Part shown: in pieces, positions 4,054 through 10,260 of the stretch
Layout of the letters: each line of letters starts with the position of its first letter
Position numbering within the stretch: position 1 is the stretch's first letter
IMG/VR virus record: IMGVR_UViG_2740892031_000004
Reading direction: 5' to 3' (one strand)
DNA: 15,282 nucleotides
DNA from: a virus
Lineage: Duplodnaviria; Heunggongvirae; Uroviricota; Caudoviricetes
The notes under the pieces: model-generated
What the model saw: only the letters and a program-made list of their open reading frames with translations
Told to the model about the DNA's origin: nothing
The model's database searches: none
Made by a program: the position numbers and the translations under genes

Positions 4054-6015
4054 TCATGCCGCGATGTCCGCGTTGTTCACTTCCACCTTCACACTGTCAA
4101 TCAGCAGCGTATATGTCGCCGCCTTTGATATGCCTGTCAGTTGCAGTTTGTCCGCCGCCCCTGATGCCGGAGATTTCACCAGTGTGAACGGCGTCCCCCG
4201 TTTCTCATCCAGTACCGGCGTCACCTGAATGCTGTTGTTTCCGGCAAACTCAAAAGCCAGTGTGTGCCATCCGTTATCAAAGACCCCGAACGTATCCAGC
4301 TTCGCATTCGGCTTCTTGTGGTGCATCGCGTTCAGGTTCGTCGCATCCGTCTGCAGGAAGAAGGACATCAGCATGTCGTTGCCTTCCTCTGCCAGCGTCA
4401 CTCCCTCCGGCAGGGACGACAACTGCCAGTAAATGCCCAGGGCAAACTGATTCGGCACCAGTGAACCCGGCAACTTAAACCGTACGCTCACACGTCCCCC
4501 CTTCTTCAGTAACTCCACTCCCTGTCCGGCTGCATCATGCTCCAGAAACCAGATGTGGTTTTCCGGTTTATTCAGTTGCAGGGCCTTACCTCCCGTAGCC
4601 CCCGCATCACTGACCACCGCTTCAGCAATGTTTTTGTTAACATTGTCTCCGCTCGCCGGTTTGTGATAATAGCGCCAGCCCTGTGATGCCAGGTCTTCGC
4701 CGGACGCCAGCAGACTCATCAGGGTTCGGTTACTGACCGGGGCTTCCGGCTCTCTCTCCGTACCTTCACCGGAAGGTCCGGTGGGCTTCACCGTATCAGG
4801 CTGTTTTCCGGTAATGAATTCAGCGTTTCTCCCGGCATGCACAAGAATCGCCGTTGCCAGACGGTCGGAAATAATCCCACGACGTGCCCATGATCCAAAA
4901 TGCGTTTTACGGTCGGCCGTCGTCCAGGTTTTGGCGTCCGTTCGACCACCGGCTCCGTAATACCCAATATCCGCAACATCCGGATCTTCTGACGGCTCGT
5001 TGGTACCCACATTTCGCCCGTTTTCATCCGTCATAAACGGCACAAAGAAGATTTTTTTTGCGGATTTCGTCTTGTATGCACCATACACCGCATCGTATTG
5101 CGAAGAATAAGTCTGCTTCCAGTAGTAGGTCGTGTCGCCACAAATCCAGGGAACCGATGACGGAGAGCCCCCGAGACACTGACCTCCGAATTCCGACAGG
5201 TCAGAACGATATTTTTCCACCATGGAATCAAACAGCCCCGGCTGAGTGGCGTATGCACCCTGTTTCAAATCAAACTCGCCCTGCATCCAGACCACTGCAA
5301 GCAGAATATTTTTAGGGTTGGCCTTCAGTGCGGCCTGAGTACGGGTAAGCAGGTCCTTGTACAGTGGCTTATCAACACCCCAGCGTGCCGAGGTCTCGCT
5401 TGCGCTGGTGGATTCGCTGAAGGTACCTTCATCGCCCGCCAAAAATGCAGAACCACCACGGCAGCACGGAACCAGAAGAATACCGGCATTCGCCGGAATA
5501 AACGGCAACAATTTCTTCGCGATATGTAATCCCTGCCCCACGCATCCATACTGAGCTGCGCTGGCTTTCGGGTGTGAAAACTTACTCAAATCCTGAACAT
5601 CATGCAGGCAGTGGTCCGCAGGAATAATGTCATTGTAGTTACAGGACGCACCACCCGGCGTGACAGTGCTGCGACGCGCCAGCTGTTTAATACGCGGGTC
5701 CGGACGGTCATATGTCTCCGGCAGCGGAAGCCCTTCACCATACGCCATACCGTTTGACCGCCCGGCTAGGGCAACAACAAAGTAATACTCCGGGTTGCTG
5801 GTGGTGCTGATAACTGCGCCTTCTCCATCCGACGGCTTCACCACCACAGGTGTGGTGACATCACCTTCCGCCGCAATGGCCTGCATCAGGGTATAAGGCG
5901 TGATGGCCACCGGACTGCCAAATGGCTGCCACCCCTCCTTCAGTTTTTGTGTCAGTCGTTTCGCAAGGTCTGACGGCGATGCCGCCCTGACAACATCATA
6001 GTGTTTAAATGCCAT
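4054..6015 (-). CDS. nanS-p: prophage NanS-p-type sialate O-acetylesterase (DUF1737 N-terminus plus SASA esterase region)
   Basis: 653 aa from ATG at 6013-6015 (ORF track gives 658 aa from 6030, which lacks an SD). N-terminus MAFKHYDVV...EGWQPFGSPV matches the DUF1737 pattern seen in the large yjhS/nanS-like proteins downstream of stx in EHEC prophages. Same position relative to Q and S as in Stx phages. Confidence 0.75.
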   Translation of the reverse strand: MAFKHYDVVRAASPSDLAKRLTQKLKEGWQPFGSPVAITPYTLMQAIAAEGDVTTPVVVKPSDGEGAVISTTSNPEYYFVVALAGRSNGMAYGEGLPLPETYDRPDPRIKQLARRSTVTPGGASCNYNDIIPADHCLHDVQDLSKFSHPKASAAQYGCVGQGLHIAKKLLPFIPANAGILLVPCCRGGSAFLAGDEGTFSESTSASETSARWGVDKPLYKDLLTRTQAALKANPKNILLAVVWMQGEFDLKQGAYATQPGLFDSMVEKYRSDLSEFGGQCLGGSPSSVPWICGDTTYYWKQTYSSQYDAVYGAYKTKSAKKIFFVPFMTDENGRNVGTNEPSEDPDVADIGYYGAGGRTDAKTWTTADRKTHFGSWARRGIISDRLATAILVHAGRNAEFITGKQPDTVKPTGPSGEGTEREPEAPVSNRTLMSLLASGEDLASQGWRYYHKPASGDNVNKNIAEAVVSDAGATGGKALQLNKPENHIWFLEHDAAGQGVELLKKGGRVSVRFKLPGSLVPNQFALGIYWQLSSLPEGVTLAEEGNDMLMSFFLQTDATNLNAMHHKKPNAKLDTFGVFDNGWHTLAFEFAGNNSIQVTPVLDEKRGTPFTLVKSPASGAADKLQLTGISKAATYTLLIDSVKVEVNNADIAA

Positions 6016-6208
6016 GGTTCTTTCCACCATCTGAAAAATAATTCTTTAAAATACCTGACATGTAATACAGAAAAAACACAAAACCATACCTTAAATAAAA
6101 ACCTCATCATCAAGCAGATATGCATGGATAAACTACAAGACGAGATATAAACCACCCTGCATTTAAATAAACAATAAACAACATCAGAAAAATAATTCTG
6201 CTCTATGG

Positions 6209-6235
6209 TTTACATTCAAAAATATCATTTATACT
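6209..6235 (+). promoter_or_regulatory. candidate sigma70 promoter for the AT-rich + strand ORF
   Basis: -35 TTTACA (6209-6214), 15-bp spacer, -10 TATACT (6230-6235), about 40 nt upstream of the ATG at 6276. Confidence 0.3.
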
Positions 6236-6275
6236 TTTCAGAACATCACCAGCAAGACATAAACAAGGAAACTAA

Positions 6276-6611
6276 ATGAAGTGGATTGTGATTGATACAG
6301 TTATCCAGCCATCATGCGGAATATCTTTTTCAGTCATATGGAGTAAAATAAAATTAATAATCTGGTATCAATCGGATGCTTTCTTACCTCCTGAAAGTAT
6401 ATTTACACTGACTCACACAGGTATCATGCTCAATAACAAAGTGCTACCTGTAACCATTTACAACGTAGCACCATTCAATAAAACATTCTGGAATTTAATC
6501 AAAAACAGCCAGGAATGTCCTACAAATACAGATAACGTATTGAATGAATGCTTTAATAACCGTTGCACTCTGCAAATATGTCCTTATGGACTAAAACAAC
6601 AAAGTCCATAA
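6276..6611 (+). CDS. hypothetical protein (111 aa) in an AT-rich islet; only convincing + strand gene outside IS2
   Basis: ATG at 6276 with AAGGA SD 6 nt upstream. The AT-rich coding sequence contrasts with flanking phage genes. C-terminal cysteine cluster (C81, C92, C97, C102). Stop codon lies inside a perfect 12-bp hairpin. No homolog recognised. Confidence 0.45.
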
Positions 6612-6614
6612 GGA
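6581..6614 (+). other. perfect 12-bp inverted repeat (hairpin) overlapping the stop of the + strand ORF
   Basis: TCCTTATGGACT (6581-6592), 10-nt loop, AGTCCATAAGGA (6603-6614). No strong U-tract on either side, so possibly a weak terminator or a protein-binding palindrome. Confidence 0.35.
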
Positions 6615-6625
6615 GTTTACTCACA

Positions 6626-6667
6626 TCTGACAAAATCAATATAAACAGCCCCTCCGGAGAGGGGCTG
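6626..6667 (-). terminator. candidate intrinsic terminator (minus strand)
   Basis: GC-rich 9-bp stem CAGCCCCTC / GAGGGGCTG (6646-6667) with 4-nt loop, followed on the minus strand by UUUAUAUUGAUUUUG. Confidence 0.4.
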
Positions 6668-6981
6668 GAGAGTGGCGCTATGTGCCATTGCATGATGCCG
6701 GGTGCCTCCCGGTGAGTTCAGTATCAGCACCTGAACCCGCACAGAAAGGATAAGGGTCGGTGACAAAACACCAGTTGCTGATTGCCCCTCCGCACAGGGG
6801 GATTCACCATGCCAGTTTCTTTTAACAAACTCCCCGCAAACCAGACAACAGTCAACCGCCTGAATTGTGAGGTATTTAAAAATTTCTCCAGATAACTGAT
6901 ACCCGGCTAACAGTCTGGCGTTTTCTTTTTCAGCAACGGGAAAGCAACAACCACCACACCCACCAGCCGCCCATTTACCAC

Positions 6982-7008
6982 AAATAAAAAAGCCTTCAGG
7001 ACTGAAGG
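6982..7008 (-). terminator. candidate intrinsic terminator (minus strand) at the end of the small ORF
   Basis: Stem CCTTCA / TGAAGG (6993-7008) followed on the minus strand by CTTTTTTATTTG (complement of 6982-6992). Confidence 0.45.
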
Positions 7009-7193
7009 TGTCTGTAACAACCAAACTGATAGTCTGCCAGACCCGCCATAACAAGCTGGGTCAGTATTAACTGGCAGCGTTCGCGTGAAAGGTAAGTATT
7101 CTGTGCAATCTCCCCGACTGTCGCCGGTTCGGTGACGCTTAACTCATTAAACACCACTCTGGCGGTTTCGGTCATATCCTGCTGTTTTAGCAT
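6996..7193 (-). CDS. small protein (65 aa) with helix-turn-helix-like segment
   Basis: ATG at 7191-7193 with AAGGGAAAAAG upstream; MLKQQDMTETARVVFNELSVTEPATVGEIAQNTYLSRERCQLILTQLVMAGLADYQ... The ORF track extends to an ATG at 7314-7316 that abuts the terminator T-run and has no SD. Confidence 0.4.
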   Translation of the reverse strand: MLKQQDMTETARVVFNELSVTEPATVGEIAQNTYLSRERCQLILTQLVMAGLADYQFGCYRHLQS

Positions 7194-7316
7194 GTCTTTT
7201 TCCCTTTTCTGGTTAACGTAACATACCAATAACTCTTGTCGGAAAAGCCAGCAAGCTGAAAGACCGGTATTCGCAACCACCAGCGCGTTTAATGTTCTGT
7301 GCCGTTTTTCAGGCAT

Positions 7317-7340
7317 AAAAAAACCCGCAAAAAGCGGGCT
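7317..7340 (-). terminator. intrinsic terminator about 80 nt downstream of Q (tR'-like)
   Basis: Stem CCCGC / GCGGG (7324-7338) with AAAAA loop; on the minus strand the hairpin is followed by a T7 run (complement of A7 at 7317-7323). Position matches the lambdoid pR'-qut-tR' layout. Confidence 0.55.
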
Positions 7341-7417
7341 CTTTCAAATGTCCATGTCTGCTATTCGCCTCGTGGTACAGCTTTGCGAAGCGTACCGGAA
7401 TTGAAGCAGTTTTTACG

Positions 7418-7972
7418 TCAAAAAGCAATAACTTTTTCCTCTATACCAAAAGCCATAACCATTGGTTTGTACAAAATAAATTCTGCCACCTTTAGCCAAT
7501 GCTCAATGCGTCTTTCACAGGTTCTTAAACTCCATTCCGGGTGTGCATCATTCAGCAGTTCAGCCATTTTGCGCTTAGTCATCCCCCGCCCCACATAACG
7601 CTGACTCAGGACATTGAGCAGCCCGGGATAGCCTGCCAGGACTTCACCAATAACCCTGTCGATTATTAACGCCTCTGAATCGGTACAATGTGCCAGCCAG
7701 CTTTTTTGATTGCCGTTGATCATATCCCGCAAAAAAGCCTCAAGTTCAGGTTTGTCCAGACCAGCTTTTTTCATCCTCCGGAGCGCCTCGTTAATTGCCG
7801 TTTTTGTCAGCTTTTTAGAGGTCAGTAATTGGTTGAACATATTTCCCGTCTTACCGCCGCCAATATACGACCACCGCCCCCACATCCGTAATTTCCCCTG
7901 GATCCAGACTGCTTCCAGCGTTTTTAGACGTAAATGCTCGCCGCTTTTGCCTGTAATTTCCGGATATATCAT
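7418..7972 (-). CDS. Q: late-gene antiterminator Q (Phage_antitermQ-like)
   Basis: 184 aa from ATG at 7970-7972 (ORF track starts at GTG 7984, overlapping the rusA stop). Sits directly upstream of a terminator and the lysis genes, and downstream of rusA. Family call is from recalled Q sequences. Confidence 0.75.
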   Translation of the reverse strand: MIYPEITGKSGEHLRLKTLEAVWIQGKLRMWGRWSYIGGGKTGNMFNQLLTSKKLTKTAINEALRRMKKAGLDKPELEAFLRDMINGNQKSWLAHCTDSEALIIDRVIGEVLAGYPGLLNVLSQRYVGRGMTKRKMAELLNDAHPEWSLRTCERRIEHWLKVAEFILYKPMVMAFGIEEKVIAF

Positions 7973-7980
7973 ATTTACGC

Positions 7981-8340
7981 TCACTCACTCTCAATTTTGT
8001 AAATCTTCACACCCAGCCGTCCACCAGATACTGGCTGACCACGTACAATATTGATTTCATCAAACTGCTCATCGTCCATTAACACTCCCGCATGCGTCAG
8101 CGCATCCAGCGGTGCTTTCAGGATATTGTCCAGGTCGCGACGACGCTTATCCGGTGGCTCTGCAATCACCTTTATCGCCAGCCTTCCGGACAGGCTTAAT
8201 TTCAGCCGCTGCTGGCGAACAATAAGCGCCACAGCCCGGCGATAACGCTTTCCCTCCTCCGAGATAAAATATGTGCTGCCACGGCGTCGCCAGTAAGTGT
8301 TCACCGTCGGCGGGTAAGGTAAAACCAAATCTATGAGCAT
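7981..8340 (-). CDS. rusA: Holliday-junction resolvase RusA
   Basis: 119 aa; core motifs match recalled E. coli RusA (PDKRRRDLDNILKAPLDALTHAGVLMDDEQ vs [30 protein letters not shown]; GGRL near the C-terminus). Confidence 0.9.
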   Translation of the reverse strand: MLIDLVLPYPPTVNTYWRRRGSTYFISEEGKRYRRAVALIVRQQRLKLSLSGRLAIKVIAEPPDKRRRDLDNILKAPLDALTHAGVLMDDEQFDEINIVRGQPVSGGRLGVKIYKIESE

Positions 8341-9848: not shown

Positions 9849-10004
9849 TTACTCCTCAGGTTCGTAAGCTGTGAAGACAGTGACCTCCGTCTGGCCGGTT
9901 CGGATTCGTACCTCGCAGAGGTCTTTCCTCGTTACCAGTGCCGTCATTATGACGGTTAAACAGATGACGATCAGGGCGATTAACATCGCCTTTTGCTGCT
10001 TCAT
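9849..10004 (-). CDS. hokD: Hok/Gef-family type I toxin (51 aa)
   Basis: Minus-strand translation MKQQKAMLIALIVICLTVIMTALVTRKDLCEVRIRTGQTEVTVFTAYEPEE matches the Hok family and is nearly identical to my recollection of HokD/RelF. AAGGAG SD 9 nt upstream of the ATG at 10002-10004. Below the 60-aa cutoff, so absent from the ORF track. Confidence 0.85.
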   Translation of the reverse strand: MKQQKAMLIALIVICLTVIMTALVTRKDLCEVRIRTGQTEVTVFTAYEPEE

Positions 10005-10260
10005 AGCCTGCTTCTCCTTGACCTTTCGGTCCGTAAGAGGCTAATCTCTATGTGTCGCATAGATATGGCCTCAGATTAATGTTAAGCGTCTTGCAGGACC
10101 GCGTAATGTTAACTGGGGCTTTTCTCTATCTGCCTTTTGGTGTTCATGCCTGAGACAGATAGCCTCAAGCACCCGCAGTCATTCTACTTAACTAAGATTT
10201 CCCCGCAAACCGTTTTTGTCCGGCACAGTAAATATCCAACTAAACCAATGGCGTTCGCTG
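10005..10260 (-). promoter_or_regulatory. hok mRNA leader region (expected site of mok overlap and sok-type antisense control)
   Basis: Non-coding stretch upstream of hok. Hok loci normally carry a long structured leader with an antisense RNA; the individual elements were not resolved here. Confidence 0.3.

Follow-up and report, generated by a model that had tools for sequence, protein, structure and literature searches.

The closest described relative of the locus analyzed here is iraL of uropathogenic Escherichia coli CFT073 (c1429), a gene of 336 bp in the potB prophage. An identity of at least 95% across the whole coding region was adopted as the definition of iraL (Hryckowian et al. 2014, mBio, PMC4045071). 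[quoted passage not shown] Deletion of iraL lowers the levels of RpoS, the log-phase half-life of which is about 5 min in the presence of the gene and about 2.5 min in the deletion mutant (PMC4045071). The gene is expressed in uninduced log-phase cells from a sigma-70-type promoter, the start of which was mapped by 5'-RACE in CFT073, and a copy of iraL that retains no more than 100 bp of the native upstream sequence complements the deletion (PMC4045071). The iraL mRNA goes up at 37 C, and IraL is raised in a fur mutant of CFT073, an effect that was treated as indirect in the paper. The functional data cover the iraL alleles of CFT073 and S. sonnei, and iraL has been reported to be rarer in EHEC/STEC.

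The second described system is IraM (YcgW) of E. coli K-12, a PhoP-dependent anti-adaptor of magnesium starvation whose gene is described as induced on Mg2+ starvation (PMC10844676). The structure of the IraM-RssB complex (8TWD) was solved with a construct of IraM residues 1-78; the C-terminal tail that had been removed was called less conserved, unstable and flexible (PMC10844676). The same paper defined the three clusters of RssB contacts (I-III) that are used below. IraM is reported to bind both domains of RssB and to be induced by stress, whereas IraL is reported to bind the N-terminal domain only and to act in log phase.

Here we analyzed a stretch of 15,282 nucleotides (IMG/VR virus record IMGVR_UViG_2740892031_000004), the whole of which is referred to as the window. 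With high confidence, an AT-rich islet within it can be described as a lambdoid prophage's self-contained cargo module. It carries iraL, whose product would block RssB and stabilize RpoS, and which would be silenced upon induction. Nothing in the data contradicts this explanation. The cargo gene as such is not new: a publication of 2014 already described it together with its promoter, target and phenotype, and it is annotated in RefSeq. The analysis clarifies the anatomy of the cargo zone that extends from the antiterminator gene Q to nanS-p, and the conserved four-cysteine tail of the protein constitutes a testable question for the anti-adaptor field.

The cargo zone between Q and nanS-p

The window spans the transition from the early to the late region of a lambdoid prophage, shown as the reverse strand. 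The features that are relevant to its layout are the following.

7981-8340, minus strand: RusA.
7418-7984, minus strand: Q-type antiterminator (Pfam: DUF1133 / Phage_antitermQ), which sets the direction of the late operon.
6996-7193, minus strand: 65-aa ORF, in RefSeq a 'TrmB-family transcriptional regulator', located between Q and STnc100, where the stx slot proper would be.
6637-6841, minus strand: STnc100 sRNA element (Rfam RF02076, 133.5 bits; gathering score 47) with a terminator hairpin at 6647-6664.
About 6018-6646 (629 bp), no strand: AT-rich islet with a GC content of about 0.32, delimited by the break in homology with the phages 933W and phi296.
4054-6015, minus strand: nanS-p-type esterase (DUF1737 + SASA + DUF6645; identified by Pfam, RefSeq and homology to 933W), divergent, the first late gene after the islet.

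Genes for a holin, a lysozyme and the terminase follow beyond nanS-p. The nanS-p gene most likely starts at 6015 and not at 6030, the start of the longest ORF, because both the RefSeq annotation and the homology to 933W point to the former position; the five extra codons of the longest ORF fall inside the islet.

The islet was originally singled out, from the letters alone, as an AT-rich region with an A-rich non-coding run, and the composition fully bears this out. The GC content over 6034-6646 (0.316) is the minimum among all 613-bp windows of the stretch (mean 0.499, sd 0.047), 300-bp windows over 6001-6600 range from 0.30 to 0.34 with flanks of about 0.5, and 48% of the spacer at 6031-6275 is A. 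The proposed comparison with the flanking genes gave the same picture, both in overall GC content (0.32 versus 0.50) and at third codon positions (GC3 of 0.32 for iraL versus 0.59 for nanS-p). Moreover, the homology of 933W and phi296 to the window ends directly after the terminator hairpin of STnc100 and restarts at the nanS-p start ('CATGG'), and the alignment shows that some 200 bp in these phages are replaced here by the islet. It is missing in 933W, phi296 and most of the matching phage records, whereas the flanks are conserved. The islet thus displays two of the properties expected of a moron, a composition that sets it apart from the neighbouring phage genes and presence/absence variation between homologous phages. 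A search of its ends for terminal repeats yielded one 21-nt direct repeat and otherwise short matches of chance size, and nothing at its borders resembles those of a transposon or an integron. The repeat (CAyCATCwGAAAAATAATTCT) is found at 6025-6045 and 6179-6199 with 19/21 identical positions, one copy in the start region of nanS-p and the other 44-64 bp upstream of the position where iraL transcription starts. The repeat does not qualify as a Fur box; it could be a site for a shared regulator of the two divergent genes or a chance occurrence in AT-rich DNA.

The sequence-only reading had located the islet at the position that is equivalent to that of stxAB in Stx phages. This holds in so far as both lie between Q and nanS-p, but the islet is found downstream of STnc100 and stxAB upstream of it. 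In 933W an STnc100-like element begins just past the stop codon of stxB, and an independent paper placed STnc100 75 nt downstream of the stx2 operon. A prophage of the Stx2c type in E. coli O157:H7 shows the complete order: Q, three tRNAs, stx2A, stx2B, STnc100 (158 bits), an IraM-family gene on the opposite strand, and nanS-p. Alignment with these two stx-carrying prophages thus revealed an adjacent slot, one module downstream, and not an equivalent one; the islet is not an occupant of the stx slot proper, which lies after pR' and the tRNAs and before STnc100. The idea that the islet takes the place of stxAB itself, with toxin and anti-adaptor as mutually exclusive cargo, could draw on the shared location between Q and nanS-p and on the reported scarcity of iraL in EHEC/STEC. 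It is nevertheless refuted by the co-occurrence in the O157:H7 prophage, and the 41 phage records that carry the Stx2-phage gene (see below) argue in the same direction, so that we give it next to no probability. Since stxAB and an IraM-family gene are found in one prophage, the toxin and the anti-adaptor are neighbours rather than alternatives. Judged from these alignments, the cargo zone has the order Q, (tRNAs), stx or other cargo, STnc100, IraM-family slot and nanS-p, in which the IraM-family islet is optional and lies on the opposite strand.

Several other elements of the region deserve mention. Strong intrinsic terminators bracket the 65-aa ORF, at about 7315-7345 (just after Q), at 6993-7008 and at 6888-6906; the ORF itself has no Pfam match, and no tRNA genes were found between Q and STnc100 in the window. 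Matches to Trp_leader and isrK at 7315-7391 were below the Rfam thresholds, at chance level, and were discarded. The corresponding prophage of strain AB_24_S34 is 99.6% identical to the window up to 7323 and again from 8013 onwards, with an unrelated Q segment in between; this comparison indicates that the two prophages, nearly identical elsewhere, have had their antiterminator modules exchanged in mosaic fashion at 7324-8012. Further upstream, a toxin-antitoxin module of the hok/sok type is located on the minus strand at 9849-10174, consisting of a sok RNA (10002-10174; Rfam, 106 bits) and a hokD-like ORF of 51 codons (9849-10004, also on the minus strand).

The iraL gene and its control signals

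Within the islet the following features were identified.

6164-6180, minus strand: candidate PhoP-box-like direct repeat TGTTTAttgttTATTTA (TGTTTA-N5-TATTTA), the only match in the window at no more than one mismatch.
6209-6243, plus strand: iraL promoter, with -35 TTTACA (6209-6214), a 15-nt spacer, -10 TATACT (6230-6235) and start at A6243.
6265-6270, plus strand: Shine-Dalgarno sequence AAGGAA, read directly, 5 nt before the ATG.
6276-6611, plus strand: iraL coding sequence, 111 aa, an IraM-family RssB anti-adaptor by identity to CFT073 iraL, NCBIfam and PDB.
6516-6581, plus strand: codons of the four-cysteine tail (C81, C92, C97 and C102).
6581-6614, plus strand: perfect 12-bp stem with a 10-nt loop over the last codons and the stop codon (arms 6581-6592 and 6603-6614).

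The proposed plus-strand ORF of 111 codons was recovered as such, as was its orientation opposite to that of the late operon (Q, nanS-p and the lysis genes). It is identical to CFT073 iraL in 110 of 111 residues and in 333 of 336 nucleotides (99.1%), without gaps, and therefore falls within the published definition of iraL. The sole residue change is found at position 65 (A in the window, V in CFT073), adjoining the strand of contact cluster III. The similarity extends beyond the gene: 701 aligned bp, including the promoter, the hairpin and the neighbouring terminator, show 98% identity to CFT073, and the same percentage applies to the 260-bp region upstream of iraL, the hairpin and the adjoining terminator. 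With this mean over 701 bases and with the mapped start present, the promoter and upstream region lie above the 96% identity to CFT073 that was taken as the lower limit for an iraL control region.

An identical protein is present in RefSeq as 'anti-adapter protein IraM' (WP_001336019.1). The NCBIfam model for IraM (NF007393) covers residues 1-110 with 162.4 bits against a cut-off of 121, and the PDB entry 8TWD is matched by sequence over residues 1-78 (phmmer, E 2e-32). A Pfam scan of the protein returned no family at E <= 0.01. Homologues carry a precomputed Pfam label PF11183 (PmrD), which represents a sub-threshold relationship since the Pfam scan is empty, and which the fold search confirms at the level of the fold only. 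The PDB sequence search also listed Kti11/Dph3 zinc proteins, but these matches (E 0.26-0.9, residues 9-47, outside the cysteine tail) were not significant and were rejected. The proposal that the islet is a moron is thus supported, because the ORF is iraL, a gene characterized in the existing literature with published autonomous expression; the protein, which had gone unrecognized, is a named member of the IraM family in RefSeq and NCBIfam.

The gene is widespread. A collection of 5,426 complete E. coli genomes contains about 1,440 records with a match to the ORF of at least 90% identity; in a further 3,330 records the match is at 60-80%, which corresponds to iraM and the Stx2-phage type. iraL is also present in deposited phage genome records, and the main cluster of 111-aa proteins has 1,045 member sequences. 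In 40 of 40 rows sampled across the ranking the matched feature was an annotated CDS; a reading frame broken in near-identical prophages, which had been named as evidence against the moron proposal, was thus not encountered, as the CDS was intact in each of these rows. The ratio dN/dS equals 0.18 in comparison with iraM and 0.10 in comparison with the Stx2-phage allele, so that the coding sequence is under purifying selection. These data bear on the view that a defective prophage carries the ORF along as a hitch-hiker that is decaying or has no function. The small size, the AT-richness and the low GC3 as compared to nanS-p, by which the islet is probably H-NS-silenced DNA, and the existence of a few truncated family variants (P0003, P0018 and P0019) would be in line with that view. 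However, the frame is of full length in the window and is annotated as an intact CDS in the sampled rows, the ratios are well below 1, and the gene is active by experiment in CFT073 and S. sonnei. The hitch-hiker view is close to refuted.

The transcription start follows from the published 5'-RACE sequence ACATCACCAGCAAGGCATAAACAAGGAAACCA, which matches the window at 6243-6274 in 30 of 32 positions and yields a 5' UTR of 33 nt. Both promoter hexamers are the same as in CFT073, and the 33-nt leader contains 2 changes. A generic scan for consensus promoters did not pick up this -35/-10 pair and returned fewer sites than shuffled sequences (2 versus 3.3); in DNA as AT-rich as this, promoter-likeness by itself is no better than chance. 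The support for the promoter comes instead from the published RACE start and the complementation from the native promoter, both in sequence that is 98% identical. On that basis the plausible -35/-10 pair that had been pointed out upstream of the ORF is probably a functional promoter, although the consensus scan misses it. The good Shine-Dalgarno sequence that had been remarked on is equally present, and it is kept in the allele of the Stx2c prophage and in phage vB_EcoS-640R1. In this phage (L007 5100-6400) the -35 hexamer of iraL reads TTTATA in place of TTTACA; the C-to-T change is probably the '-35 point mutation' that was noted for JJ1886 in the 2014 paper. The same phage has two tandem copies of STnc100, at 5735-5923 and 6199-6392 of L007.

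The candidate PhoP box lies 63-79 bp upstream of the start site and 96-112 bp upstream of the ATG. The allele of the Stx2c prophage has a PhoP box with 1 mismatch at the homologous position (L006 4389-4405) and at the same distance. The site is equalled in 65 of 2000 local shuffles (about 3%), and no such site was found in 11 kb scanned around K-12 iraM; for these two reasons it is kept as a lead only. A Fur box, to be considered because IraL is raised in the fur mutant of CFT073, was rejected, as the best match (11/19) was reached by 1905 of 2000 shuffles.

The ORF had been said to end inside a perfect 12-bp hairpin, and indeed the stop codon is located within the right arm. The left arm is made up of the 'PYGL' codons, and their reverse complement gives the codons for 'SP-stop'. 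On the plus strand the hairpin has a dG of -17.5 kcal/mol (z -4.3), with equal stability in 0 of 200 shuffles. The tail that follows it, GUUUACUC, contains 4 U in 8 positions and the scan called no terminator on the plus strand; the hairpin is not a canonical intrinsic terminator. The gene is convergent with STnc100 and its stop codon is 35 bp away from the terminator of the latter, the T-tract of which comes from the islet. An iraL transcript that passes the U-poor hairpin would therefore be antisense to STnc100. The hairpin is absent from K-12 iraM and from the allele of the Stx2c prophage; as the latter also lacks the QQSP tail, hairpin and tail are peculiar to the iraL clade.

This arrangement leaves some room for the explanation that the phage profits from the module more than the host does, in that the convergent iraL promoter and the hairpin would insulate nanS-p and the lysis genes from leakage of pR'/STnc100 transcription during lysogeny, the protein being of secondary importance. 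The convergence with the late operon, the short distance between the 3' end of iraL and the STnc100 terminator, the T-tract that the islet supplies and the equal stability of the hairpin on the minus strand (-19.2 kcal/mol, z -4.1) speak in its favour. Yet purifying selection on the coding sequence is strong, an effect of the protein on the host has been demonstrated, the Stx2-phage allele keeps the gene without any hairpin, and many phages have no islet at this position at all. We consider this explanation improbable; insulation would be at most an additional effect of a cargo module that carries iraL.

The IraL protein and its cysteine tail

The AlphaFold2 model that was generated from 39 diverse sequences has a pLDDT of 84, with values of 88-96 for the core. 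In a Foldseek comparison the best match by far was IraM from the IraM-RssB complex (8twd_A; TM 0.89, rmsd 1.3 A), followed by PmrD. The predicted model and the phmmer match both identify the core as a PmrD-like beta-barrel, as in 8TWD. Cluster I, which comprises the IraM contacts to the N-terminal (receiver) domain of RssB, is fully identical (I4, I6, W22, K26 and I42; 5/5), whereas cluster II is identical at 3/5 positions (T13S, L75I) and cluster III at 2/4 (H63N, I64V); the last two contact the C-terminal domain and the linker. [quoted passage not shown]

The fold could also be taken to mean that the protein is a PmrD-like connector acting on a regulator other than RssB, for instance by protecting phospho-PmrA. 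The model matches the PmrD structures 4HN7, 2JSO and 2RQX with TM 0.72-0.78, and the precomputed PF11183 labels of the homologues point the same way. However, the sequence identity to PmrD is only 14-21%, the Pfam scan is empty, and both the superior match to RssB-bound IraM and the complete conservation of cluster I argue for RssB as the partner. Moreover, IraL co-purifies with RssB and works through the stability of RpoS. A different target is therefore very unlikely, and the reading as an RssB anti-adaptor is retained. Given the single-residue difference with CFT073 IraL, the product of the window should bind RssB and raise the level and half-life of RpoS in log phase.

The way in which the module would function can be outlined as follows. 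In a lysogen that is not induced, the RNA polymerase of the host, carrying sigma-70, would start at A6243 and transcribe iraL antisense to the silent late operon; this was shown in the literature for the near-identical allele and is carried over to the window by identity. The 33-nt leader with its strong Shine-Dalgarno sequence would then direct the synthesis of a cytoplasmic protein of 111 aa. Residues 1-78 are predicted to fold into the PmrD-like beta-barrel and to dock on the receiver domain of RssB, with contacts as deduced from the IraM-RssB crystal structure. RssB would then no longer pass RpoS to ClpXP, as was shown for CFT073 IraL, and the half-life of RpoS in log phase would about double, so that the lysogen would carry a primed general stress response. 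Upon induction, Q-modified polymerase is expected to read through the STnc100 terminator and to cross iraL in antisense direction on its way to nanS-p and the lysis genes. This late transcription should shut down iraL by transcriptional collision.

The C-terminal four-cysteine cluster that had been spotted in the ORF (C81, C92, C97 and C102) is better conserved than anything else in the family, although the only crystal structure was obtained with this tail removed. In IraL the pattern reads C81-x10-C92-x4-C97-x4-C102-P, and family-wide it can be written as C-x(8-11)-C-x(3-5)-C-x4-C-P. An exhaustive profile search gave 94 matches, about 50 of them full-length proteins that carry the name IraM in Salmonella salamae, Citrobacter, Enterobacter, Kosakonia and other taxa. 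For 39 family representatives, which go down to 20% identity and come from genera including Escherichia, Salmonella, Citrobacter, Enterobacter and Kosakonia, the only invariant columns are M1, P12, C81, C97 and C102, while C92, W72 and P103 are kept in 38 of the 39. The four cysteines are thus among the seven most conserved columns of the family. The residues between them vary freely, and apart from the cysteines variability is higher in the tail than in the core. An additional cysteine, at position 11, is present in about half of the family. The pLDDT of the tail amounts to 53-72 in the model from 39 sequences, in which it is no longer treated as disordered, as compared to below 50 in a model from 16 close homologues, which was uninformative overall (pLDDT 56). 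Neither metal binding nor a role for these cysteines is mentioned in the literature searched. The conservation pattern tentatively suggests that the tail might not be a disposable flexible extension but might bind metal or sense redox conditions and in this way determine how stable or active IraL/IraM is, although we regard this as distinctly less probable than not. If true, phage-borne anti-adaptors would couple the stability of RpoS to the metal or redox state.

Relation to CFT073 iraL, iraM, the Stx2-phage gene and PmrD

The locus of CFT073 is found at the same place of a lambdoid prophage, likewise next to the STnc100 terminator, and it shares the promoter hexamers and the 12-bp hairpin with the window. 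Its context in the potB prophage consists of an antiterminator, tRNAs, iraL on the opposite strand, a remnant of nanS-p, and a holin. The two differ in that the CFT073 prophage contains an IS200 element, three tRNAs and a truncated nanS-p, whereas in the window nanS-p is intact and the tRNAs are lacking.

IraM of K-12 is a paralogue with 63% amino acid identity to IraL of the window. [quoted passage not shown] In contrast, the homology between the genes is limited to the coding region and the upstream DNA is unrelated. That the homology of iraL and iraM stops at the ends of the coding sequence fits the different regulation of the two genes. In addition, K-12 iraM lacks the 12-bp hairpin and the QQSP extension, and it is located beside e14 and not in a late operon.

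The IraM-family gene of the Stx2c and Stx2a phages (for example phages 2851 and 1717; WP_001303568.1) occupies the same slot as iraL between STnc100 and nanS-p in the same antisense orientation, its product is 76% identical to IraL and 65% to IraM and shares the four cysteines, and its AT-rich upstream region is about 62% identical to that of iraL. It differs from iraL in its length (107 aa), in the absence of the hairpin and the QQSP tail, in its -10 hexamer (TATAAT) and in its location directly downstream of stx2AB and STnc100. The copy in the Stx2c prophage is found at L006 4501-4824 (O157:H7 strain 7.1_Anguil). A total of 41 phage records contain the gene at 95% identity or more, and almost all of these are Stx2-, Stx2a- or Stx2c-converting by name or are known Stx2 phages. 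Its nucleotide identity of 77.6% is too low for iraL or iraM as defined in the literature, since both definitions demand at least 95%, and no paper studying it was found in the literature searched. It forms a third, separate clade of the IraM family, and it could account for the as yet unexplained high levels of RpoS during log phase in EHEC strains without iraL.

PmrD, which protects phospho-PmrA, has in common with IraL the unusual beta-barrel fold and the principle of a small protein that acts on the receiver domain of a response regulator, but it has another target, has no four-cysteine tail and constitutes a separate sequence family according to the Pfam scan. As for the nomenclature, RefSeq designates both the CFT073 and the window gene product as 'IraM' and not as IraL. 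Since iraL is differently regulated and its product binds RssB in a different manner, surveys that are based on annotation conflate the two anti-adaptors.
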